From positions 1-52,496 of the forward strand of contig JAUXSK010000019.1 of NCBI GenBank assembly GCA_030679995.1: a stretch of 52,496 nucleotides of DNA. The letters are read 5' to 3'. This document shows, piece after piece, positions 205-17,147 of this stretch (within the stretch, counting starts at the first letter, position 1; each line of letters begins with the position of its first letter). The notes beneath the pieces are model-generated. The model made no database searches. It saw only the letters and a list, made by a program, of their open reading frames with translations, and was not told the origin of the DNA. The translations under genes and the position numbers were made by a program. The stretch is from Candidatus Moraniibacteriota bacterium (GTDB lineage: Bacteria; Patescibacteriota; Minisyncoccia; Moranbacterales; UBA2206).

Positions 205-1161
205 ATGCATATTGAAAATGATCTCAACTTAAAGAGACAAGCCGATAAATTAGGGGTAAGTATTTGGAGAACCCCGAGTTTTTTGTTTATCATAATAGGC
301 ATCGTCAATGCCGTGGCGATGGCGGTGACCTACTATATCTCCAAACAATATGACAGGCCGGAATTCTTGGTGGTGGCCGAAAGCGTGGTCGTCGCCTGCA
401 TCTTTTCAATCGGTAAATATATCATCGGACAGTTCGAAGAAATCGACGCTTTGAGCAAAATGAAGACTGAATTCGTTTCGGTGGCTTCCCATCAGTTGCG
501 TACCCCATTGTCGGCTATCCGCTGGGAAACAGAATTGATGCTCAGTAAGCTTGATCGCGGCCTGAACAAAAAACAACGCAAGAGCATCAGCACCATAAAT
601 TTATTAGCTACCAGAATGACGCGCCTGGTTAATGATCTTTTGGACGTGACCAGGATCGACCAGGGCAGGTTGATTTTAAAAAAGGAAAAAGTCGACATCG
701 CCAGGATAGTCACTGAGATATCCGGTGAGTTTTTGCCGTTGATCAAAGAGAAAAAGATGAAAGTCATATTCCAAAGCGTCCGCAAATGCAAGACGGACAG
801 ATGTAAACCTTTTGGCGTGCTATCGGACCAGGAAAAATTGAAATTGGTCGTAGAAAATCTTTTCAGTAACGCGATCAAATATACCGGCGCTTATGGCCTG
901 ATTGAAATAGACCTGTCAAAAAAGCGGGGATTTGTGGTTTTCAGTATCAGGGATAACGGTGTGGGCATACCGAAAGAACAGCAGGTCCAGGTTTTCAGCA
1001 AATTTTTCCGAAGTGACAATATCGTGAAATATCAGACGGAGGGAACCGGATTGGGTTTGTATATCGCTAAGAATATCATCGAACAATCCGGCGGTAGAAT
1101 GTGGTTCCATTCCCGGGAGCACACCGGTTCCATATTCAGCTTTTCGTTGCCGGCGGCATAA
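205..1161 (+). CDS. Membrane sensor histidine kinase (2 TM, HisKA and HATPase)
   Basis: H-box EFVSVASHQLRTPLSAI, N-box NLFSNAIKY, DNGVGIP, GTGLGL. Confidence 0.95.
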   Translation: MHIENDLNLKRQADKLGVSIWRTPSFLFIIIGIVNAVAMAVTYYISKQYDRPEFLVVAESVVVACIFSIGKYIIGQFEEIDALSKMKTEFVSVASHQLRTPLSAIRWETELMLSKLDRGLNKKQRKSISTINLLATRMTRLVNDLLDVTRIDQGRLILKKEKVDIARIVTEISGEFLPLIKEKKMKVIFQSVRKCKTDRCKPFGVLSDQEKLKLVVENLFSNAIKYTGAYGLIEIDLSKKRGFVVFSIRDNGVGIPKEQQVQVFSKFFRSDNIVKYQTEGTGLGLYIAKNIIEQSGGRMWFHSREHTGSIFSFSLPAA

Positions 1162-1180
1162 TTATTTTTTTATCATCTAT

Positions 1181-1558
1181 ATGAAAAAGAAGAAGATTTT
1201 GATTGTTGAAGACGAAAATTCACTGCATAACGCTTTGAAGGAATTCCTGCTGACTGAAAATTTCGACGTGATCAGTGCGGGTGATGGTGAATTGGCCGTC
1301 AAATTGGCTAAAAGTGAAAAACCGGATCTTATTTCGCTGGATATAATCCTGCCTAAGAAAGATGGTTTTGAAGTCCTGACCGAATTGCGGGAAGACGGAC
1401 GGACCAATAAAATCCCGATCATCCTGCTGACCAATCTGGAGAGGACCGAAGACATCGGCCGGGCTTTTGATTTGGGCGTGAGCACGTACCTCGTGAAGTC
1501 TAATTATAACCTGAAAGAAATCGCTGATAAAATAAAAGAAACGTTGAAATTGAAATGA
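1181..1558 (+). CDS. Single-domain response regulator (receiver only)
   Basis: ILIVEDE, LISLDIILPKKDG, LLTN, YLVK; no output domain. Confidence 0.93.
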   Translation: MKKKKILIVEDENSLHNALKEFLLTENFDVISAGDGELAVKLAKSEKPDLISLDIILPKKDGFEVLTELREDGRTNKIPIILLTNLERTEDIGRAFDLGVSTYLVKSNYNLKEIADKIKETLKLK

Positions 1559-3300
1559 GGATAGAAAACAAACAATTATATGAATTTATCAAGGACTCCG
1601 AGTTGATAAAAACCGAGGAGCTTGATTTGGCATATAATGATTCCCAGAACGGCAATAAACGTTTGGGTGAGATATTATTGGAAAAGAAGCTGGTCGATGA
1701 GGTCAAATTGCGGGAATTGTACGCATATATCCTGGGCGTGCCTTTCGTCGATTTATCCAAGGAAATCGTGCCGGCTGATATATTGCAAATCGTGCCAGAG
1801 CCGATCGCCAAGAAATATAAGATTGTGGCTTTCGAGAAAAATGCCCAGGAGCTTAAGTTGGCGATGCTAAATCCGGAGGACATCCAGACAGTCGATTTCA
1901 TCCGCAAAAAAACCGGCTTGAAAATCATAACCTGTCTGACTTCCGAGAACAGCATCAATGTGATTTTGAAACAATATGAAAAAAGCCTGAAGGCCGAGTT
2001 CGGCGATATAATCGAAAAGAATTCTTCGGAGGTGGGCGATGGCGAAGACGAGGATTTGGAAAAAGTGGCGCAAGGCCTGCCCATAATCCGGATAGTCGAT
2101 ACGCTGATCAAACATGCCATTTTGCAGGAAGCCAGTGATATCCATATCGAACCGGATGAAAAAGAGATCAGGGTGCGCTACCGTATCGACGGCATCCTGC
2201 ATGACGCGATGACTTTGCCCAAACAGATCAAGCATGGGATAATCGCCCGTATCAAAGTTTTGTCCAATCTCAAATTGGATGAACATCGGGTGCCGCAGGA
2301 CGGCCGGTTCAAAATCGAGAAGGAGGGTATGAAAATCTCCTTCCGGGTAAGCATTTTGCCGATATTCGATGGCGAGAAAATCGTAATGCGTCTTTTGAAT
2401 GAAAATTCCAAAGGTCTTACTTTGGAAAAGATGGGCCTGGGCGGATTCGGTTTGGAAATCGTGCATCGGCAGATCAAGAAGCCTAATGGGATGATTCTGG
2501 TGACCGGTCCGACCGGTTCGGGAAAAACGACGACTTTATACACGATTATGGATATTTTAAATACGCCGGAAGTCAATATCAGCACGGTCGAGGATCCGGT
2601 CGAATATCGGATGCCCAGAGTCAATCAAACCCAGATTTATACGAAAGTCGGTCTGACTTTCGCGGCCGGACTCAGGGCTCTTTTGCGTCAGGATCCCGAT
2701 ATCATAATGGTCGGGGAAATCCGCGATCAGGAAACGTTGGAGATGGCTATCCACGCCGCGTTGACCGGACATTTGGTCTTGTCGACGCTCCACACCAATA
2801 GCGCGGCGGCGACTTTGCCCAGGATTATCGATATGGGCGCCGAACCGTTTATGGTGGCTTCCACGGTGAATGTCATCATAGCCCAACGGCTGGTGCGCAA
2901 ATTATGCCAGGATTGTAAGAAAGAATATAAAATGACGGCTAAAGAGCTGGCGATATTAGGTGATAGTTACGATATAGCGTCGATTTTAGAGGTGATCAAG
3001 AAAAATGACAGCACCAAAGAGTTGATGTCCGGCAAAACTTCCTGGGAAGAGATAACGCTGTATAAATCCGTCGGGTGCGAACAGTGCGGCAATGAAGGTT
3101 ATCGGGGCAGAAACGGAATTTATGAGGTTTTGGAAGTGGATGCGGATATGGAAAAGATGATTTCACAGAAAGCGCCGACTGAAGAGGTGGAAAGGGCTGC
3201 CAAGAAAAAAGGGATGGTGACGATGGTGGAAGACGGTTTTATCAAGGCGGTCAATGGAATCACTTCGATTGAAGAAATTTTGAGAGTAACTAAAGAATAA
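1555..3300 (+). CDS. pilB: Type IV pilus extension ATPase, PilB/GspE family
   Basis: ASDIHIEP, Walker A GPTGSGKTT, LRQDPDIIMVGEIRD, His box STLHTN, CxxC…CxxC zinc site. Confidence 0.95.
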   Translation: MRIENKQLYEFIKDSELIKTEELDLAYNDSQNGNKRLGEILLEKKLVDEVKLRELYAYILGVPFVDLSKEIVPADILQIVPEPIAKKYKIVAFEKNAQELKLAMLNPEDIQTVDFIRKKTGLKIITCLTSENSINVILKQYEKSLKAEFGDIIEKNSSEVGDGEDEDLEKVAQGLPIIRIVDTLIKHAILQEASDIHIEPDEKEIRVRYRIDGILHDAMTLPKQIKHGIIARIKVLSNLKLDEHRVPQDGRFKIEKEGMKISFRVSILPIFDGEKIVMRLLNENSKGLTLEKMGLGGFGLEIVHRQIKKPNGMILVTGPTGSGKTTTLYTIMDILNTPEVNISTVEDPVEYRMPRVNQTQIYTKVGLTFAAGLRALLRQDPDIIMVGEIRDQETLEMAIHAALTGHLVLSTLHTNSAAATLPRIIDMGAEPFMVASTVNVIIAQRLVRKLCQDCKKEYKMTAKELAILGDSYDIASILEVIKKNDSTKELMSGKTSWEEITLYKSVGCEQCGNEGYRGRNGIYEVLEVDADMEKMISQKAPTEEVERAAKKKGMVTMVEDGFIKAVNGITSIEEILRVTKE

Positions 3301-3411
3301 TTTTAAATTATAAATTTTAAGTTTTAAATTAATTTTAAATTGTTAAATCGCTAAATTTTAAAACTCCAATTCCGGATTTATTTAAAATTTTAAATTTAGG
3401 ATTTAAAATTT
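3301..3411. repeat. AT-rich heptamer-like palindromic intergenic element
   Basis: Repeated TTTTAAA/AAATTTT units fill the pilB-pilC gap. Confidence 0.65.
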
Positions 3412-3417
3412 CCAATC

Positions 3418-4638
3418 ATGGACGTATTTTATACCGCGAAAGGTTTTTTTGGGGAAACCAAGAGCGGCGAGGCGAAAGTCAAGGATGAACGTGAGCTGGT
3501 CGACCAATTGCGGGCCGAAGGGTTCGTTTTGACGTCTGTCAAAGAATTGAAAAGTGAAGACGACCAAGATATCAAAATAAAATTTATGGACCGGTTCATC
3601 GGGATATCGGTGGCGGAAAAAATGATGTTCGCCAAAAATCTGAGCGTGATGATCTCTTCCGGGATGCCGCTGTCAAAATCATTGCAGAATATCAAGGCGC
3701 AAACCCAGAACAAGAAATTCATCAGCGTCCTTGATCATGTGAATAACGATATCCAGACCGGAGTCAGTTTCGCGGACAGCTTGGCGAAATTTCCCGGCAT
3801 CTTCGATGAACTTTTCGTCAATATGATCAGGGTCGGCGAGGTAAGTGGTAATTTGGAAGAGGTTTTGAATATTTTGGCGATGCAGCTGGAAAAAGACCAT
3901 GAACTCATCAAGAAAGTTACGGGCGCTCTGGTCTATCCAGCGGTCATCCTGGTCGCGATGGGCCTCATCGGTATCGTGATGATGGTCTATGTCGTGCCGC
4001 AGATAACCGGAGTATTCGAGGATTTGGACGCGACTTTGCCGGCTTCGACCCAGTTCATCATTTCTATGAGCGATTTGATCAGGAATTATTGGTATGCTTT
4101 GGTTTTCCTATTCCCACTGTTCGGCATTATGGTCAAATTTTTATCTACGACCCAGGTGGGCAAGAAGTTGGCCAGTCTTATCCTGATCAATCTTCCGGTA
4201 ATCAAGAACATAGTCATCAAGGTGAATTGCGCCAGGTTCGCGCGGATATACAGTTCCCTTTTGAAGAGCGGCGTTTCTGTCGTGGAATCTTTGAAAATAC
4301 TTTCAAAAACCCTGACCAATTTCTATTATCAGAACGCGCTGGCGCGCGCGGTGGTGGATGTCCAAAAGGGTGTCAATCTGAGCAAGATAATTTTTGCCGA
4401 GAGGAAGATTTTCCCTGTCTTGGTGCCGCAGATGATCGAAGTGGGCGAGGAAACCGGAAAAACCGAAGTGGTTTTGTCCAAGCTTGCCGAATTTTATGAG
4501 GCCGATGTCGACCAGATAACCAAAAACTTATCCTCTATAATCGAGCCGGTTTTGATGCTTCTGATCGGAAGCGTCGTCGGGTTTTTCGCGGTTTCCATCC
4601 TACAGCCGATGTATAGCGTGCTGGAGAATATCAAATAG
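3418..4638 (+). CDS. pilC: Type IV pilus platform protein, PilC/GspF family
   Basis: Two T2SSF repeats (GEVSGNL, GEETGK), C-terminal IIEPVLMLLIG…PMY. Confidence 0.95.
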   Translation: MDVFYTAKGFFGETKSGEAKVKDERELVDQLRAEGFVLTSVKELKSEDDQDIKIKFMDRFIGISVAEKMMFAKNLSVMISSGMPLSKSLQNIKAQTQNKKFISVLDHVNNDIQTGVSFADSLAKFPGIFDELFVNMIRVGEVSGNLEEVLNILAMQLEKDHELIKKVTGALVYPAVILVAMGLIGIVMMVYVVPQITGVFEDLDATLPASTQFIISMSDLIRNYWYALVFLFPLFGIMVKFLSTTQVGKKLASLILINLPVIKNIVIKVNCARFARIYSSLLKSGVSVVESLKILSKTLTNFYYQNALARAVVDVQKGVNLSKIIFAERKIFPVLVPQMIEVGEETGKTEVVLSKLAEFYEADVDQITKNLSSIIEPVLMLLIGSVVGFFAVSILQPMYSVLENIK

Positions 4639-10818: not shown

Positions 10819-10842
10819 GTTTTTCTGAAAAAGCGTAAAGCA

Positions 10843-10870
10843 AAAAATCCTCCCGGAAGGGAGGATTTTT
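10843..10870. terminator. Bidirectional intrinsic terminator
   Basis: AAAAATCCTCCC-ggaa-GGGAGGATTTTT between the convergent pilus operon and tRNA cluster. Confidence 0.85.
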
Positions 10871-10875
10871 AGATT

Positions 10876-11034
10876 CGGTGCGCCCTGAGGGATTTTCGCG
10901 TCGTCCGCGGCGGACTCCTTGTCCTGGGCAGCGCTGGATGCTCGCTTGCTCACATCCATCGTCGTTTGTCTGTGCCGCGGCGGGCTTGCTTCACTCCTGC
11001 CCGTTCGAATTCCTCATGGAAAATTTAAAAAAAA
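10876..11034 (-). mobile_element. tRNA-Arg(UCG) 3'-linked element, copy A
   Basis: 10876-10894 duplicates 11035-11053 (19 bp of the tRNA 3' end); 11003-11016 is an inverted copy of the T arm (13/14); core about 90% identical to 16921-17040. Confidence 0.8.
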
Positions 11035-11037
11035 CGG

Positions 11038-11110
11038 TGCGCCCTGAGGGATTCGAACCCCCGGCCCTCTGGTTCGAAGCCAGATACTCTATCCACTGAG
11101 CTAAGGGCGC
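11038..11110 (-). tRNA. tRNA-Arg(UCG)
   Basis: Cloverleaf GCGCCCTTAGCTCAGTGGATAGAG…TCTGG-CTTCGAA-CCAGA…GGTTCGAATCCCTCAGGGCGCA. Confidence 0.95.
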
Positions 11111-11207
11111 AAACAATAAAAAAAATAGGCGGAACTTCCTGCCTGCCAGCAGGTATCCGTTGAGTTAAGGGTGCATAACTTTTGATTTTTTAAGAAATCT
11201 ACAGGGG

Positions 11208-11279
11208 GGCGATCACTGGGAATCGGACCCAGATACTCGGTACCACAAACCGATGTTCTACCACTGAACTATGATCGCC
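11208..11279 (-). tRNA. tRNA-His(GUG)
   Basis: G-1:C73 pair; anticodon arm TCGGT-TTGTGGT-ACCGA; T-loop TCCGATT. Confidence 0.93.
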
Positions 11280-11308
11280 ACTCTGGAGACTTCCCGTTCT
11301 CTTTCCTG

Positions 11309-11381
11309 TGCACCCACTAGGACTTGAACCTAGGACCATATCCTTAAGAGGGATCTGCTCTACCAACTGAGCTATGGGTGC
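11309..11381 (-). tRNA. tRNA-Lys(CUU)
   Basis: GCACCCATAGCTCAGTTGGTAGAGC…ATCC-CTCTTAA-GGAT…GGTTCAAGTCC. Confidence 0.95.
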
Positions 11382-11410
11382 AAAACTATAATTTTAAATT
11401 GCCGATTATG

Positions 11411-11483
11411 TGCGCCTGGCAGGAATCGAACCTGCGACCAATAGCTTAGAAGGCTACTGCTCTATCCACTGAGCTACAGGCGC
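11411..11483 (-). tRNA. tRNA-Arg(UCU)
   Basis: GCGCCTGTAGCTCAGTGGATAGAGC…TAGC-CTTCTAA-GCTA…GGTTCGATTCC. Confidence 0.95.
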
Positions 11484-11587
11484 AGATTTCAATGCTTAAA
11501 GGGCGCGATAAGAGTCAAAACATAAAATTGCCTAAAGGCAATATAGCCATCCTAGCAGGAAAAGCGCAATCAGTCAATATTTGCCGG

Positions 11588-12886
11588 CTAAGTCCGCTTA
11601 TTTTCTTTCAAATATTTCGACCATTCATTTTTTGACCAATCATCAGGTTTTTCAGTTAAGACTTGTCCGGGATGCGGGTATTTATTCGGTGAATCATAAC
11701 TGCTATTGAAGACGTCTTCCCGGATCAATTTGCCATCAGCATCAAATACTTGCTGGGAAAAGGTCGTTTTCATCGATCCGTCCGGTTTTCTTTCAAGAAT
11801 AGTCGGACCGATCACATCGGTCTTGCGGCCATCCGAAGTGCCGAAGAATCTGAATATTAATTCCGTTCCGACAATTTCAGTCTGGATCAGGATATGGCCG
11901 GGGGTGTTGTTAATGAAGCGCAAATCGGGCCGGGGCACATAGACTGTGGCATCCATACCTTGAGGATTGTAATACGAAACCGGATAGGCGTGATTACGGC
12001 GGGCGGTTATTTCAAGGCCGCCATAAATAGCGGCACGGAAAGCCGTGGTTGAAACTTGGCAGATTCCGCCGCCGAATTCCGGCTCGGTTTTGTCTTTTTT
12101 AATGACCAATTCCGGTAGATAGCCATGCTCGCCATCGACTTCACCTAATATTTTTACAAAAGAGAATTCTTCACCTGGCTTGATGAGTGTTCCGTTAAAA
12201 CGGTTGGTGGCGACTTTGATATTGAAGACGCGGTTCTTAGGGGAGCCACGAAAATTTGAGCGTCCCTCGCCGATAAGGGAAGTGATGCCGAGATTATCGA
12301 TAGAATCAGTTCTGACTTCCGGATTTTTCTGGATGTATGGCAAATCAAGGGTGTCGGATGCCCCTTTTTGTGCTAGATGGTTGGCTAGGATAGCGATGCT
12401 TTTTTCTTGGTCAAGTTCGATGCCAAGCTGACTTAGGGTAAAAACTGAGACCTTGCCATTCTCTATAGTCAATTTGGCATTGGTCGGTTCTATGTTCGCT
12501 TGCCTGGATAGATCTTCAATGAACCGTTTCGTTGATCCGGTATCCAAATAGAGGACTGAAGATTTTTGGATATGGTCTTGGTCTTTCAAACTTAGCGCCA
12601 GCGCGCATAGGATGGATTTTTCGTGCTGGCAGATATCCTTGTTTTCAATTTCGGAAACGTAGTCCGGGTTATAGGTGAGGACATTTTTTTCTTTGATCCA
12701 GCTGGAAAGCTCCGTCTTGGTCAGCGGATAGGTCTTAGTGCCGACTTTAAGCGTGAGTTCCTTGAATACGCCGTCAGTTTGGCTGGCAGAAGAAAACTTT
12801 CCCAAAGGGATTGTTTCGGCCAGAGCGGTGCTACTTCCGATAAGGAGTAGACAGCTAAAAATGATTGTTGTCAGAAGATTTAACAT
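11588..12886 (-). CDS. VanW-family secreted protein, probably with a peptidoglycan-binding region
   Basis: Signal peptide; GGGICQVSTTAFRAA, RRNHAYPVSYY, DLRFINNT. Confidence 0.9.
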   Translation of the reverse strand: MLNLLTTIIFSCLLLIGSSTALAETIPLGKFSSASQTDGVFKELTLKVGTKTYPLTKTELSSWIKEKNVLTYNPDYVSEIENKDICQHEKSILCALALSLKDQDHIQKSSVLYLDTGSTKRFIEDLSRQANIEPTNAKLTIENGKVSVFTLSQLGIELDQEKSIAILANHLAQKGASDTLDLPYIQKNPEVRTDSIDNLGITSLIGEGRSNFRGSPKNRVFNIKVATNRFNGTLIKPGEEFSFVKILGEVDGEHGYLPELVIKKDKTEPEFGGGICQVSTTAFRAAIYGGLEITARRNHAYPVSYYNPQGMDATVYVPRPDLRFINNTPGHILIQTEIVGTELIFRFFGTSDGRKTDVIGPTILERKPDGSMKTTFSQQVFDADGKLIREDVFNSSYDSPNKYPHPGQVLTEKPDDWSKNEWSKYLKENKRT

Positions 12887-12892
12887 AAGTTA

Positions 12893-12921
12893 AGAATAGC
12901 CTAAATTTGCTCTAAAATCAA
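12893..12921 (-). promoter_or_regulatory. Promoter of the VanW gene, probably leaderless
   Basis: TTGATT-17 nt-TATTCT, 6 nt before the ATG. Confidence 0.6.
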
Positions 12922-12937
12922 TACTTCCGGGATATGG

Positions 12938-12964
12938 AAAACGCCCCGCATATCGGGGCGTTTT
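12938..12964 (-). terminator. Terminator after the Hsp20 gene
   Basis: AAAACGCCCCG-catat-CGGGGCGTTTT. Confidence 0.8.
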
Positions 12965-12980
12965 GTCGCACTTTTCGGCT

Positions 12981-13505
12981 CTAGAAGCCGCGAACCTGGA
13001 TTTTTTTAGTCTTAGTATTGTCAGCTTTCGGCAGGCGGATAGTCAAAATTCCGTTTTTCATCGAAGCTTCCGCTTTGTCAGCCAGGACATCGATCGGTAA
13101 AATAACCGATCTGGAGAAACTTCCCCAGTAACATTCCTGGTAGTAATAATTTTCTTCACTGACCATTTCTTCATTCTTCCTTTCGCCACGGATACTGACC
13201 ATATCGCTGTTGATTGTCACATCCAAATCTTCCGGTTTGACGCCCGCTATAGTCGATTTGATGACGATATCATTGTCAGTTTGATAGACATCTATGGTGA
13301 GTTGTCCTTCACCGTCTTCACTGGAAGCCGGGCTTTCTTCCGGCATGGTCCTCCGGGTGGAAGAATTTATCAACATTTCCTCGGATTCTTCCTCTTCTTC
13401 ATAGATTTTAGCTAATGGCCTGATAGGGGTTTCAAATTCCTGATTTTCATCAATATTACTTGAACCGGTGAGTCTTTCCAAAAAAGATCGCTTCACTTTA
13501 ATCAT
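12981..13505 (-). CDS. Small heat-shock protein (Hsp20/alpha-crystallin)
   Basis: IDVYQTD…GVKPEDLDV…GSFSRSVILP…ASMKNGILTIRLPK. Confidence 0.93.
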   Translation of the reverse strand: MIKVKRSFLERLTGSSNIDENQEFETPIRPLAKIYEEEEESEEMLINSSTRRTMPEESPASSEDGEGQLTIDVYQTDNDIVIKSTIAGVKPEDLDVTINSDMVSIRGERKNEEMVSEENYYYQECYWGSFSRSVILPIDVLADKAEASMKNGILTIRLPKADNTKTKKIQVRGF

Positions 13506-13585
13506 TTTTTTGTGAATATTATTTTATTATCTGAAATAATTATAATCGAAGGCGCCATATTTTGCAAATGACAAAAATTCCGCGA

Positions 13586-14146
13586 TCAGACTTTTGTCCG
13601 GATGGATTTGCGGTTGAATGCGGCCAGCAAAAGGAAAGAAAATGCTAGCTCTGAATAAATTGCCACATAACCCAAACCATATATAACCGATAAATTATAA
13701 GCCAGATGCAGGGCGAAGGCGAGTCCGATGATTTTGATGGCCGGGATATTTTTTTTGAGCAATAGCGTGCCGATAATTCCGGCAGTAGCGATATGCAATA
13801 ATGGGGTGCCTAATAACCGGAAGCCAAGGAGGTCATCGTGGGATGGGAAAGTTTGGCTCAGGAAAAAAAGTATTTCAACCAAGGAGAAGCCTGCTCCGAA
13901 AACAAGCGCCATGGAAATTTTTGGCGGCTGGCTGCCAAGCGCGGAATATAATTTGACTAGCAGGATATATTTGGAAATCTCCTCAACCAAAACGACGATA
14001 AGCAAAAAGATCGTCATTCCGATAAAATAATCCACTGCGATGTCTTTTGAGGATACGACGTAATATGCATTCGACAGGATAAGTTCGATGCACAGCGCTC
14101 CCGAAGCGGCTAGTAAACCAAAGACAAGGGATTTGATGAATCGCAT
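13586..14146 (-). CDS. PrsW-family intramembrane metalloprotease-like protein
   Basis: Multi-TM with VEEISK, GAGFSLVE, HxxxxG and HxxYN motifs. Confidence 0.7.
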   Translation of the reverse strand: MRFIKSLVFGLLAASGALCIELILSNAYYVVSSKDIAVDYFIGMTIFLLIVVLVEEISKYILLVKLYSALGSQPPKISMALVFGAGFSLVEILFFLSQTFPSHDDLLGFRLLGTPLLHIATAGIIGTLLLKKNIPAIKIIGLAFALHLAYNLSVIYGLGYVAIYSELAFSFLLLAAFNRKSIRTKV

Positions 14147-14159
14147 ATTTTGTATTTTT

Positions 14160-15221
14160 TTATAACTTCAAATTAGCTTCGGTTGTAAGCTCTTTCCAAT
14201 TGGAAAACAGCGTATCGTTGAGGCCATTTTTTTGCTGCCTGAAAAAAGCGGCGGTAGCGACCATAGCCGCGTTATCCAATTGGAAGGAGGGATCCGGGAA
14301 AGAAAAGTCCGTGCCGGCAAGTTGTTGCGAAACGGCTTTGCCAAGCTGGATTTGCAACTGGGTGTTGGCACTGACTCCGCCGGCCAGTATGATAGTTTTC
14401 GGTTTGTGGATTTTTGCGGCCGCGACGGTTTTTGCCAGGAGGACGTCGATAACGGCTTGTTGGAATTCATAGGCGACTTGCCGGACGAATTTTTTATCAG
14501 CCAGCCGGGCTTGGTTTTTTTTCACAAGATAGAGGACGGATGTTTTGAGGCCGGAAAAAGAAAAATTAAAATTTTTGCTGGCGATCATCGGTCTGGGAAA
14601 ACTGATCGGAAAAAGGGATTTTTCCGGCTTGAATTCGTCCGCCAATTTTGAAATTATCGGTCCGCCCGGATAGCTAAGGCCTAGGATCCTGGCAACCTTA
14701 TCGAAGGCTTCGCCAGCGGCGTCATCTTGCGTTTCACCGATTATTTCATAATCCAAATGTTTTTTCATCAATACTAGCTGTGTGTGTCCGCCGGAAACGA
14801 CCAGGCAGAGGACAGGGAAAGCGATATCCCCAGGATCTTTAGCAATAAAATTGGCATAGATATGTCCTTCGATATGATGGATGCCCAGTAATGGTTTTTG
14901 CCAGGCGTAAGCGATAGTTTTGGCGGTGTTGGTGCCGATAAGAAGGGCGGGAATGAGTCCCGGGCCTTGGGTGACGGCGATAAGGTCAATGTTTTCCTTA
15001 CGGATGTCCGCTTCAGCCAGGCTGGCTTGTATGACCGGCAGGATATTGCGCAGATGCTCGCGTGCCGCCAGATTAGGCACTACGCCGCCCCATCGGGCGT
15101 GCAAGCGTATCTGGGAAGAGATAACATTGGATAACGGTTTGATAGAACCGCTTTTTTCATCTATTCTTATTATAGCGGCTGCGGTTTCATCGCAAGAAGT
15201 TTCTATTCCTAAGATATACAT
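14160..15221 (-). CDS. tsaD: tRNA N6-adenosine threonylcarbamoyltransferase
   Basis: ILGIETSCDET, GGVVP, HHIEGH, VSGGHT, DDAAGEAFDK, DNAAMV. Confidence 0.97.
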   Translation of the reverse strand: MYILGIETSCDETAAAIIRIDEKSGSIKPLSNVISSQIRLHARWGGVVPNLAAREHLRNILPVIQASLAEADIRKENIDLIAVTQGPGLIPALLIGTNTAKTIAYAWQKPLLGIHHIEGHIYANFIAKDPGDIAFPVLCLVVSGGHTQLVLMKKHLDYEIIGETQDDAAGEAFDKVARILGLSYPGGPIISKLADEFKPEKSLFPISFPRPMIASKNFNFSFSGLKTSVLYLVKKNQARLADKKFVRQVAYEFQQAVIDVLLAKTVAAAKIHKPKTIILAGGVSANTQLQIQLGKAVSQQLAGTDFSFPDPSFQLDNAAMVATAAFFRQQKNGLNDTLFSNWKELTTEANLKL

Positions 15222-15380
15222 ATTTTTTTTGCCTGATTCGGCGCAAGACGGATTATGGTATCATACATTGGTATTGTATGCGATTCTAGGATAATTCACA
15301 AATGAAATATTGGTTCTGATAATAAGTATTAATTGATAATCAGCGTGGAGGAAATCAGCAAAATAGGCGATTTTGAAGCT

Positions 15381-15977
15381 ATGGGAAAAGCGCAGGCCGG
15401 ATTGGATGATAACCAATTGGTCAAATTGATCCAAGCCGGAGAGGTGGATTTGTTTGCTGCGATTATCGAAAGATACCAAGGCAAGCTGTTCGCTTATCTT
15501 TATCGCTTGATCGGCAACCGGGAGGAAGCGGAAGATCTGTTGCAAAATGTTTTTATCAAGGCTTTTGAAAACATGCAAAGCTACGATGCGGAGCGGAAAT
15601 TTTCTTCCTGGATATATCGGATCGCCCACAATGAGGCGGTCAACTATATCAAGAGGAAGTCGCTGAAAAAATTCATTTCCTGGGAAGATATCACTTCGAC
15701 CAAAGATAAATTGGCGAGCAATAGCGCGGAAGACGGCGCCGACCATCTTTGGCTTCGGAAAGAGGCGATAGGGGAGGTTGATGAAGCCATCAATCGGCTG
15801 CCGATCAAATACAAACAGGTCCTGATATTGCGCTATTATTCGGAAAAATCATATGAGGAAATAAGCGAGATTTTGCAAAAACCGGTCAATACGGTCGGAA
15901 CATTGATTAACAGGGCTAAGAAAAAAATGGCGGAAGAAATGGAGAAATTGAACGACCGGAGCAATCCGCCAAGCTAG
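15381..15977 (+). CDS. ECF RNA polymerase sigma factor
   Basis: AEDLLQNVFIKA, FSSWIYRIAHN, SYEEISEIL…TVGTLINRAK; ATG at 15381 preferred over the TTG at 15333. Confidence 0.93.
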   Translation: MGKAQAGLDDNQLVKLIQAGEVDLFAAIIERYQGKLFAYLYRLIGNREEAEDLLQNVFIKAFENMQSYDAERKFSSWIYRIAHNEAVNYIKRKSLKKFISWEDITSTKDKLASNSAEDGADHLWLRKEAIGEVDEAINRLPIKYKQVLILRYYSEKSYEEISEILQKPVNTVGTLINRAKKKMAEEMEKLNDRSNPPS

Positions 15978-16021
15978 ATTTTTATCCAAACGGAAAGTAT
16001 ATCAATTAAGCGAGAAACAAG

Positions 16022-16681
16022 ATGAAACAGGAAATAATGCAGAAGATAAAGGAAAAAAAAATCCGGATGCGGCCCGCTTCCCTTTTTTTGGCTCAAAAAT
16101 TGGGGTTGGAAAGCGTTTTGGCGTTGTCGATTCTGGCTAGCGCTTTTTTATTGAGTACATTCCTGTATTTTTTGAAAAAAACCGGGGTTATGAAGTTTAT
16201 GGCGTTCGGCTGGCCGGGGCTGAAGATAATTTTACTGACATTGCCGTATGATTACATCATCCTTTTTATCATAACCATCGTATTGGCTAATTTCATAATC
16301 CATAAATTCGATTTGTCGCGCGGAATATGTATGGATTCCAATATAGCCGTCCTTGCCTTGCTGGCAGTTACGCTCCTTTTGGGTTCTTTTTTCGCGGTCG
16401 CCGGCGCAGAAGATGTTATGGGTGGATGGTTCAAGAAAACGATTCCGGGCGACATCGCCGTTTCAGGTCGGATTATCGAATCTTCCGGCAACCAAGTCGT
16501 AATCAGGGATTTTGACGGCTCCGTACGGATATTGAATTTTGACAGCCTGAAGGATATCGATAGCTCTCCGGACAGAAAAAAATATGAACAAAACAAAATT
16601 TTGCGGGCGGTCGGCAAGCGCGACGATGAGAATCGGGCCGAATTCCATGTTGAAATAGTCGAGTGTTGCGATGAGGATTAG
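16022..16681 (+). CDS. Membrane protein co-transcribed with the ECF sigma, candidate anti-sigma factor
   Basis: Several TM helices and a short soluble C-terminal domain; 44 bp downstream of the sigma gene. Confidence 0.7.
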   Translation: MKQEIMQKIKEKKIRMRPASLFLAQKLGLESVLALSILASAFLLSTFLYFLKKTGVMKFMAFGWPGLKIILLTLPYDYIILFIITIVLANFIIHKFDLSRGICMDSNIAVLALLAVTLLLGSFFAVAGAEDVMGGWFKKTIPGDIAVSGRIIESSGNQVVIRDFDGSVRILNFDSLKDIDSSPDRKKYEQNKILRAVGKRDDENRAEFHVEIVECCDED

Positions 16682-16796
16682 GTTTTTCGGTTTGATAGCA
16701 TGAATCGACATATAGGGTAATTTTCAGCGGTTTTCCAGCAGCCGCTTGATTTATTTTTAGTTTGTGTTATTATTTCTACTGTTATCAAAAAGACAT

Positions 16797-16874
16797 GCCG
16801 CCATCGTCTAGCCCGGTCAGGACGCCAGGTTTTCATCCTGGAAATCAGGGGTTCGAATCCCCTTGGCGGTACCA
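16797..16874 (+). tRNA. tRNA-Glu(UUC)
   Basis: GCCGCCATCGTCTAG…CCAGG-TTTTCAT-CCTGG…GTTCGAATCCCCTTGGCGGTACCA. Confidence 0.95.
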
Positions 16875-16908
16875 AAAAGAAAAGCTTCCCTTAACAGGAA
16901 GTTTTTTT

Positions 16909-17088
16909 GTCGTCAAGGGGATTCGAACGGGCAGAGGTGAGGCAAGCCGCCGCGGCGCAGACGAATGCCGATGGATGCGAGCAAGCGAGCGTTCAGCGCT
17001 GCCCAGGACAAGGAGTCCGCCGCGGACGACGCGAAAATCCCCTTGGCGGTACCAAAAAGAAAAGCTTCTCTTAACAGGAAGTTTTTTT
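16909..17088 (+). mobile_element. tRNA-Glu 3'-linked element, copy B
   Basis: 17036-17088 repeats 16856-16908 (tRNA 3' end plus terminator, 1 mismatch, 180 bp period); 16914-16928 is a perfect inverted copy of 16851-16865; core shared with copy A. Confidence 0.85.
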
Positions 17089-17147
17089 TGTCCGGATTAA
17101 GTGGTATAATCCGGAAAGATGGGCGGTTGGCGATTTGCTGGGGTCGA

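Follow-up and report, generated by a model that had tools for sequence, protein, structure and literature searches.

A structured module behind tRNA genes of Moranbacterales, with arms matched to each host tRNA, is probably mobile and is built like the RtT repeats of Escherichia coli tyrT

What kind of element sits behind two different transfer RNA (tRNA) genes as one GC-rich sequence, yet has ends that match whichever tRNA lies beside it? The question is raised by a stretch of 52,496 nucleotides (nt) from Candidatus Moraniibacteriota bacterium (order Moranbacterales; GenBank assembly GCA_030679995.1, contig JAUXSK010000019.1, positions 1 to 52,496), which we call the window. An initial annotation of the window described the pattern at tRNA-Glu(UUC) and tRNA-Arg(UCG) and left a pair of alternatives: a tRNA-targeting, non-autonomous element with ends templated from the target, or an antisense arm in the precursor tRNA that competes with folding of the T-arm. 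Our comparison with related genomes backs the first alternative and gives no such backing to the second. On balance, we think that the unit is a non-autonomous, mobile, tRNA-linked structured module with the same architecture as the RtT repeats behind E. coli tyrT.

Read on the strand of the tRNA, both window loci have the same layout: the tRNA gene, whose segment from nt 58 to the 3' end we call D1, a spacer, an inverted copy of part of the tRNA (arm I), the core, and D2, a direct copy of the D1 segment (Table 1). The unit comprises the spacer, a terminator in most cases, then arm I, the core of ∼105 nt and the junction motif GCGRA, after which D2 follows. Its structured module measures ∼125 nt and the whole unit about 125–190 nt, and no open reading frame (ORF) lies inside it. 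The host tRNA is left intact because D2 is a second copy of its nt 58-to-3'-end segment. At the level of single bases the initial annotation was accurate: positions 16994–17041 equal the reverse complement of 10889–10936 at 48 of 48 positions, the two inverted copies and the exact direct repeat at the Arg locus are as it had read them, and the identity of the two units, which it had put at ∼90%, is 90.4% over 125 columns by BLASTN. The direct repeat at the Glu locus, starting at 16856 and 17036, is exact for 33 bp and then runs on through the terminator with one mismatch and one extra T, ∼53 bp in total as annotated. The cores have a GC content of 0.66–0.69, compared to 0.46 across the window. 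This pattern is far beyond chance: the layout recurs at two further tRNA genes of the same genome and in 99 complete units from related genomes. A coding reading of the core was discarded; reverse-strand ORFs traverse it, and no reading frame is kept because copies differ by indels of 1, 5, 8 and ∼20 nt. We also rejected a rule that ties the unit to a replication strand. Both units of the window are on one replichore, where GC skew is positive throughout, and they point in opposite directions (n = 2), hence orientation follows the tRNA and not the replication fork.

The source genome of the window (G000; genome labels G, contig labels C and labels L for fetched loci are those of this analysis) has 993,898 bases in 31 contigs and is 99% complete. 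It contains four copies in its 0.99 Mb. The third, behind tRNA-Glu(CUC) on C26, matches the Glu(UUC) unit at 96% identity and its direct repeat measures 37 bp, and the fourth, behind tRNA-Gly(UCC) on C24, is decayed, AT-enriched and truncated at its 3' end. Among the 39 tRNAs of this genome, a second exact copy of the last 16 nt exists only at the three with intact units. To survey other genomes we used a covariance model of 124 positions built from 21 units (R1). Matches came from 21 of the family's 71 genomes, with 1–6 copies each, and from 43 of 151 genomes sampled from the order, with a maximum of 19 copies in a genome of 1.2 Mb; in one family of the order sample, 17 of 20 genomes had the unit. 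Within a sample of 151 genomes from the phylum there were four genomes with matches, namely G000, G040, which belongs to the same order, and a pair of genomes from a single other family, the only two outside the order. The exact-motif matches listed from a collection of species genomes have titles naming Candidatus Moranbacteria/Moraniibacteriota, the Parcubacteria group and the Patescibacteria group, with chance matches in GC-rich genomes mixed in. The sequencing runs in which the window is found are metagenomes from groundwater. Every genome used is a bin from a metagenome, and the copy numbers are lower bounds because units sit at contig ends in several of them. In the literature searched we found no description of such units in Patescibacteria.

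We next asked how closely the unit is linked to tRNA genes. The 92 loci with matches yielded 99 units complete at both ends, and 77 of these have a tRNA upstream on the same strand within the fetched locus. The distance is at most 100 nt for 67 units, 101–300 nt for six (mostly second units of arrays), 301–1000 nt for one and more than 1 kb for three. The initial annotation had suggested searching genomes with the core and asking whether every copy abuts a tRNA; the 67 close units agree with that expectation, whereas 22 of the 99 have no tRNA in the fetched locus and are found at contig starts, inside arrays or behind inserted islands. The 67 close hosts comprise 13 isoacceptors: Glu-UUC (19), Gln-UUG (9), Tyr (7), Gln-CUG (7), Glu-CUC (6), Pro (5), Arg-UCG (4), Gly-UCC, Gly-GCC, Lys-UUU and Trp (2 each), and Ser-GCU and Ser-CGA (1 each).

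The arms of these units match their own hosts. In 64 of the 67 units, arm I includes a perfect complement to the 7-nt T-loop of its own host, a level that none of 5000 shuffles reached, and the inverted segment does co-vary with the host tRNA, as had been supposed. This is also seen at the 24 hosts that do not have the commonest T-loop (five variant loops), where 22 arms carry the exact complement of the variant and one carries the common version. The longest exact run averages 12.4 nt between arm I and its own host and 8.2 nt between arm I and the tRNAs of other hosts; for D2 the corresponding values are 14.1 and 6.0 nt. D2 starts at nt 58 or 59 across all loop variants. Since the arm tracks the host at loop nt 54–57, which are absent from D2, it copies the complementary strand of the tRNA gene (∼nt 53 to nt 65–71) and is more than a partner of D2. 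Paralogues on different tRNAs within one genome, at Tyr, Glu-CUC and Glu-UUC in G111 and at Glu and Arg in G000, have cores that are 90–92% identical. Their arms share only 10 of 16 positions and fit their own host at 14–16 of 16 positions but another host at 10–12. A divergence of ∼9% predicts one or two differences in 16 nt and six are seen; therefore, the host must have served as the template for new arms, either on insertion or shortly afterwards.

Two observations concern the T-loop itself. Seven host tRNAs of the Glu and Gly types from several genomes (L015, L031, L032, L053, L062, L156 and L159) have the T-loop TCCGATT, with C at the normally invariant U55, and other hosts have TTCGAGT, TTCGACT or TTCAAAT, all of them unusual among bacteria. 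At L010, ∼1340–1375 (G001:C19), a partial 5' copy of tRNA-Glu(CUC) lies ∼35 nt upstream of the intact gene and spans the anticodon arm through the opening bases of the T-loop; it breaks in the T-loop and appears to be a second kind of rearrangement anchored there.

Comparison with congeners revealed sites without the unit. At the tRNA-Arg(UCG) locus of G001 and G002 the terminator lies directly behind the tRNA, while in the source genome it follows D2, and the difference between them is exactly the spacer, the arm, the core and one copy of the repeat. The unit is gained and lost at tRNA loci, moves between tRNA species within genomes and forms tandem arrays. A tree of the cores, made by a quick method from 67 rows and 124 columns, requires at least 44 changes of host; 30 of its 64 forks are open, and its resolution is too poor for dating the jumps or putting them in sequence. 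Outside the family of the window, arrays are frequent. They include identical tandem units (L122, L133), different units in succession at one tRNA (L127), and a row of five diverged units with shortened D segments (L120). Independent double insertions at one tRNA occur as well. The long repeats at the two Glu loci of the source genome are truncated units of the kind that also ends many arrays. Spacers vary by lineage and are nevertheless homologous among units at different loci, genera and even families, so the spacer travels with the unit. From the empty sites of the congeners, and from nearly identical cores with different, host-fitting arms, we conclude that the unit is in all probability a non-autonomous mobile module with arms re-made from the target. 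The first alternative of the initial annotation is in line with this, given also the patchy multi-copy spread, the 13 host isoacceptors, the lack of an ORF and arms that change faster than the core. Its statement that the ends are templated from the target holds in that the arms match the host; the route of templating is one that we infer.

We also looked for reads that support the duplications. Logan contigs from three runs of one study, one of them possibly the source sample, cover the Arg copy, and contigs joining core, arm, spacer and tRNA-Arg were found once in the possible source run and once in an independent sample. At the Glu copy, which is nearly identical to the Glu(CUC) copy, the Logan contigs end and none spans the unit, so that the Glu duplication is neither bridged nor contradicted. 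The joints listed from Logan contigs fall in the tRNA cluster and derive from other organisms or repeats.

Two stretches near arrays or units are of interest in their own right. L121 (G167:C11:24500-34600) has five units on one strand, split by blocks of 1–3 mostly same-strand ORFs, with no tRNA within 10 kb; almost all of the ORFs lack a Pfam match and one is aldose-epimerase-like. The locus looks as if inserts had piled up, in the manner of a cassette array, at what were once 3' ends of tRNA-Gly. At L119, positions 700–4400 (G002:C6), 3.6 kb of extra genes separate the tRNA-Glu(UUC) unit from a downstream gene that is adjacent to it in the source genome. The insert begins right behind a truncated arm and includes a 387-amino-acid protein without an assigned family.

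The module has a conserved fold. In 113 units aligned to R1, 94.4% of the paired cells are complementary, compared to 25–42% with slid partners; 25 of 29 pairs have changes on both sides, and 0 of 500 shuffles reach any of five measures. The fold has four helices. Its closing helix is formed by arm I with the junction and the start of D2 and leaves the 3' strand of the acceptor unpaired, and the second pairs GGGCAG with CTGCCC, or GGGTGG with CCACCC in some units. The rest of the fold comprises two variable hairpins, one conserved internal hairpin and invariant single-stranded joints. Helices 1 and 2 are paired in 95.7% and 96.4% of cells, and both-side changes occur at four of four pairs of helix 1. 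G-U pairs are frequent and reach 57, 32, 13 and 12 sequences, respectively, at four of the pairs. The fold exists on the tRNA-sense strand only, because many of these G-U (G-T) pairs become mismatches on the other strand. Folds of single sequences compared with shuffles gave z values of −2.6 (RNA) and −3.0 and −2.3 (DNA) for the sense strand, and −1.3, −1.0 and −1.5 for the antisense strand. In Rfam, only tRNAs pass the gathering threshold in the window, and the core has no match at E values up to 10. The 60 nt upstream of the units have a typical profile of an A-tract, a hairpin and a T-tract that ends 10–25 nt before the arm. Simple promoter scans found no promoter before either window unit.

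Table 1. Features of the Glu and Arg units in the window (positions are those of the window)
Feature	Positions	Strand	Description	Basis
tRNA-Glu(UUC)	16797–16874	+	host of unit 1; 16856–16874 (nt 58 to CCA) is D1	ARAGORN; Rfam tRNA, 63.4 bits
Spacer, Glu unit	16875–16913	+	terminator-like hairpin 16885–16901, T-run 16902–16908; 16875–16908 is part of the long direct repeat	sequence, repeat comparison
Arm I, Glu unit	16914–16928	+	15/15 inverted copy of tRNA-Glu nt 53–67 (T-loop, 3' T-stem, 2 nt of acceptor)	
Core, Glu unit	16929–17035	+	GC-rich, structured; covariance-model unit 16918–17041 takes in the loop-derived parts of both arms	138.7 bits
D2, Glu unit	17036–17054	+	direct copy of tRNA-Glu nt 58 to CCA; pairs with arm I and closes the fold	
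Second terminator copy, Glu locus	17055–17089	+	hairpin 17065–17081, T-run 17082–17089; end of the ∼53-bp direct repeat	
tRNA-Arg(UCG)	11036–11110	−	host of unit 2; its 3' part plus base 11035 (11035–11053) is D1	ARAGORN, Rfam
Spacer, Arg unit	11017–11034	−	AT-rich; missing from the empty sites of two congeners	
Arm I, Arg unit	11003–11016	−	13/14 inverted copy of tRNA-Arg T-loop and 3' T-stem	
Core, Arg unit	10895–11002	−	structured; covariance-model unit 10889–11013	127.2 bits
D2, Arg unit	10876–10894	−	direct copy, exact over 19 bp, of tRNA-Arg from nt 58 to its 3' end	
Host terminator of tRNA cluster	10842–10870	−	directly behind the tRNA in the empty sites of the congeners	

The closest architectural counterpart known to us is the RtT repeat. 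Knowledge of these 178-bp repeats, which follow tyrT in E. coli, goes back to the 1970s, and RtT RNA is released from the tyrT transcript; we know of no accepted origin or function for the repeats. At tyrT/tyrV of E. coli K-12 we found four RtT units (RF00391) with scores of 133–138 bits, each with a spacer of ∼60 nt, an arm, a GC-rich structured core of ∼100 nt and a tRNA copy from the T-loop to CCA. Like the Moranbacteria units, they directly adjoin a same-strand tRNA on its 3' side and form tandem repeats. Their arm is complementary to the T-arm of tRNA-Tyr at 19 of 22 nt (86%), and the Rfam consensus is closed by a helix between the arm and the 3' copy that leaves the acceptor 3' strand and CCA single-stranded. 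The initial annotation had cited tyrT as a case of tRNA-linked repeats, which is correct, but had taken from it only the direct repeat; because the RtT arm is complementary to the T-arm as well, a host-specific inverted copy is not peculiar to the genome studied here. The two also differ. The loop part of the E. coli arm has diverged and a direct T-stem/T-loop half follows it, the E. coli units occur at tRNA-Tyr only whereas those of Moranbacteria occur at 13 isoacceptors with clear gain and loss, and a terminator usually precedes the latter. A side-by-side view of the segment before the D2 junction in short-hairpin units (L019, ∼540–577) and in a tyrT-tyrV RtT unit (L311, ∼3385–3420, minus strand) found them very alike by eye, which is anecdotal.

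How could such a module work and spread? By analogy with RtT, we favour the view that the unit may act as an RNA made by read-through. The module would work in single-stranded form, and the helix of arm I and D2 would give the RNA a tRNA-like 3' end. One passage of a preprint (10.1101/2024.07.17.603846) gives rtT RNA a part in tyrT transcript processing and, probably, in the stringent response. A terminator before the unit need not exclude its transcription, to judge from an account, in PMC8144298, of small RNA genes that lie between two terminators in E. coli rrn operons and are expressed by read-through. The source of new copies could be an event of copying or recombination with its anchor in the T-loop, which would duplicate the host's own 3' segment and re-template the arm from the host T-arm. 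Re-templating might accompany insertion itself, or might follow shortly through correction between the inverted repeats, which lie close together. Because there is no element-encoded enzyme and none in the genome is associated with the unit, host functions of replication, repair or tRNA processing are the presumed machinery.

Several results weigh against a mobile, RtT-like RNA module. No machinery was identified, and none of the enzyme families searched tracks the unit. A run of five or more T is present within 60 nt upstream in 66 of 95 units, and the same 95 units lack a conserved −10 box at a fixed distance; upstream terminators without such a box fit a module that is shielded from transcription of the tRNA and favour a role at the DNA level. 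There was no RNA run among those containing the window. RF00391 (gathering threshold 45 bits) gave no match at E values up to 10 in six units, the Glu unit of the window and five further loci, and neither R1 with filters off nor nhmmer with two profile hidden Markov models found anything significant at the E. coli locus. With no match either way, the likeness to RtT is architectural only. Many arrays end in a truncated unit consisting of repeat, spacer and partial arm, and no simple model predicts such ends. Arm I lacks an exact T-loop match in 3 of the 67 units. In L147, D2 fits the loop of the host and the arm fits that of a related Glu tRNA, while in one unit of G111 the arm fits the host but nt 59 of D2 does not. 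The arm of the Tyr unit of G008 still resembles the Glu-type arm of its nearest relatives; together with L147 this indicates that D2 is host-derived at once and that the arm can lag. Finally, the loci of the linkage set were chosen because they held a match, related genomes are non-independent samples, and the alignment behind the fold statistics was fitted to the model and consists of related sequences. Model fitting and kinship do not, however, account for the size of the effect in the fold or for the many distinct types of pairs.

We searched for enzymes that could move the unit. The source genome has no match to RVT_1 or to the IS110 transposase; the search of transposase families was limited to the latter and Y1_Tnp. 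The only Y1_Tnp match, of the RAYT/IS200-like kind, is weak (27.5 bits; 231 amino acids; C21:112235-112459), and Y1_Tnp is not associated with the unit: it occurs in 87 of 151 genomes of the order, in 17 of 19 genomes of a family without the core and in 9 of 20 genomes of the family in which 17 of 20 have it. The G2P-type Rep protein, found in 25 of 151 order genomes (8 of 43 with the core and 17 of 108 without it), and the large serine recombinase, found in 45 of 71 family genomes (12 of 21 with the core and 33 of 50 without it), are not associated with the unit either. Tyrosine recombinases (PF00589) gave 1–3 matches in each of five copy-rich genomes, none of them beside the arrays listed, and two in the source genome; only Xer-like genes were found. 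In IMG/VR, two motif scans returned four stretches each, none of which was confirmed by the covariance model, and collections of phages and plasmids had no match to the unit.

The initial annotation had proposed to look for longer versions carrying an ORF. Loci with ORFs were found, and these are composites in which a separate serine-integrase island lies between the tRNA and the unit. In G002:C2, an island of 5 kb with a large serine recombinase (Resolvase, Recombinase and zinc-ribbon domains), a G2P-type Rep and a ClpP-like protease separates tRNA-Gln(UUG) from the unit. In G018:C3, an island of 8.5 kb with another serine recombinase lies between tRNA-Gly and the unit. The islands end in a conserved 12-nt motif of their own and a degenerate tRNA-like segment. 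Three islands without the core end likewise, and the unit of G167:C11 is preceded by the same end motif and a terminator. The closest homologues of the integrase (52–59% identity) are in genomes without any core match, and the source genome has one serine recombinase island with Rep. We therefore rejected an autonomous long version of the unit; we read the loci in G002:C2, G018:C3, G002:C4 and G167:C11 as cases in which a separate island or cargo stands next to it. As an observation apart from the unit, large serine recombinases of ∼500–540 amino acids are encoded convergently to the tRNA genes for Gln-UUG, Gly-UCC and Arg-UCG, with a frame that runs antisense into the tRNA's 3' end (for example G000:C26:34277-35800 in L079, L069 558–2081, L101 595–2208, L104, L106 and L107). 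Their islands also encode a G2P-type Rep. The tRNA-site integrases of this clade seem usually to be serine and not tyrosine recombinases, with a homologue in 45 of 71 family genomes.

The main rival view is that the unit acts only as DNA, as the folded, single-stranded attachment site of a non-autonomous integrative element, which we regard as possible but doubtful. In single-stranded DNA, the arm would pair with the junction plus D, and together they would mimic the T-arm of the targeted tRNA gene in its double-stranded form. A recombinase or nicking enzyme of the host would then join a small circle of D, spacer, arm and core into the T-loop, with the element supplying a new tRNA 3' end and terminator. 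CTX phage joins at dif, and integron cassettes use attC, in a comparable manner. These sites, attC and attP(+), are strand-specific imperfect hairpins with a stem that imitates the target, are conserved in structure above sequence, and are served by IntI or XerCD at attI or dif. They are simple hairpins, whereas the stem of the unit encloses a conserved multi-helix core and its target is the tRNA T-loop. Such a role would fit the strand-specific fold with its G-T-compatible pairs and good DNA-fold scores on the sense strand only, the terminator that precedes nearly all units by a short and constant distance, as though borne by the element, the lack of a conserved promoter, homologous spacers at different loci and genera, a left limit of the direct repeat that is always T-loop nt 58, and different units in tandem at one tRNA. 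There is, however, no dedicated recombinase, given only 1–3 tyrosine recombinase matches in copy-rich genomes and two in the source genome, and neither an integron integrase nor extra tyrosine recombinases lie by the arrays listed for the five copy-rich genomes. A D1 carried on the circle would make a chimeric, dead tRNA upon each jump to a new host, yet D1 always fits its tRNA, and the donor-like part in L147 and in the Tyr unit of G008 is the arm. The opposite orientation of the window copies on one replichore and the lack of a free or viral copy in the two IMG/VR scans and in the phage and plasmid collections do not fit well either.

Two further explanations are less likely than an RNA or a DNA-level role. 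The unit could serve the host as a cis-regulator, its antisense arm pairing with the upstream T-arm in read-through transcripts and steering folding, processing or decay, with D2 as a competitor. An arm that is complementary to the whole T-loop, including the nt 54–57 that D2 lacks, that follows rare loops in 22 of 24 cases and that lies 20–65 nt from the tRNA on the same strand would suit this function. We nevertheless consider it improbable, as congeners lack the unit at the same tRNA, the distribution is patchy, copies decay (for example the Gly copy of the source genome), only 4 of the 39 tRNAs of that genome have a unit, a terminator usually stands between tRNA and arm, and inner units of arrays have no tRNA of their own. 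The unit could also be the attR scar left by a tRNA-integrating island after loss of its genes, which we disfavour as very improbable. The direct repeats do begin in the T-loop and extend to the tRNA 3' end, like those of tRNA attachment sites, and serine recombinase islands of 5 and 8.5 kb do lie between tRNA and unit in G002:C2 and G018:C3, with the same end motif before the unit of G167:C11. In general, tRNA-integrating islands and prophages resemble the unit in targeting the 3' part of a tRNA that is kept intact, in the 3'-end direct repeat and in tandem pile-up. The unit differs from them in having no integrase, a length of ∼125–190 nt, a host-matched inverted arm and a conserved fold, and a covarying fold and a re-tailored arm are unexpected of a scar. 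Moreover, the islands have their own end motif and tRNA-like segment, also in the three without the core, the closest integrase homologues are in genomes without the core, and the integrase is found in 12 of 21 family genomes with the core but also in 33 of 50 without it.

The module that we favour, mobile but without an enzyme of its own, can be set beside other small elements. REP (repetitive extragenic palindromic) sequences, REPINs and repeats like MITEs (miniature inverted-repeat transposable elements) are short, structured, multi-copy, non-coding, patchy and reliant on functions encoded elsewhere. MITEs have fixed terminal repeats and fixed target duplications, whereas the arms of the unit vary by host and copy the target, with only the part derived from the T-loop common to all. 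Type V-K Tn7-CRISPR elements home to tRNA genes by a guide, according to a preprint (10.1101/2021.02.06.429022), and they resemble the unit in carrying a short segment that matches the adjoining tRNA gene. They are large transposons with Cas12k and Tns proteins; none of these lies in or near the units.

A bolder generalization, which we consider unlikely as it stands, would unite the Moranbacteria units and E. coli RtT in an unrecognised class of mobile elements without proteins. The arm would guide the element to any tRNA T-arm, in the gene or the transcript, host enzymes would insert it at T-loop nt 57/58, the 3' end of the host would be copied, and the guide would be rewritten with each jump. 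If this were true, minimal genomes would harbour in this unit a parasite of their tRNA genes that retargets itself. Apart from this generalization, the presence of an RtT-like architecture in a very distant lineage, where it is plainly mobile, turns an oddity of E. coli into a class with many natural 'experiments', making the origin of tRNA-linked repeats and the role of the folded unit testable. The units also matter for annotation, as they break assemblies of small genomes at tRNA loci and their pseudo-tRNA 3' ends can be mistaken for attachment sites of islands.

The source genome contains a second, tiny dispersed hairpin repeat, a GC-rich perfect palindrome of 20 bp, CCTGCCTRCCGGYAGGCAGG, with five exact copies and nine when up to three mismatches are allowed. 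The exact sites are L004 1474–1493 (G000:C24, ∼6879) and, in the same genome, C2:29231, C12:12770, C14:42509 and C22:4473. The palindrome is also found inserted at varying places inside units of G001 (L030), G027 (L032), G016 (L022) and G167 (L121).

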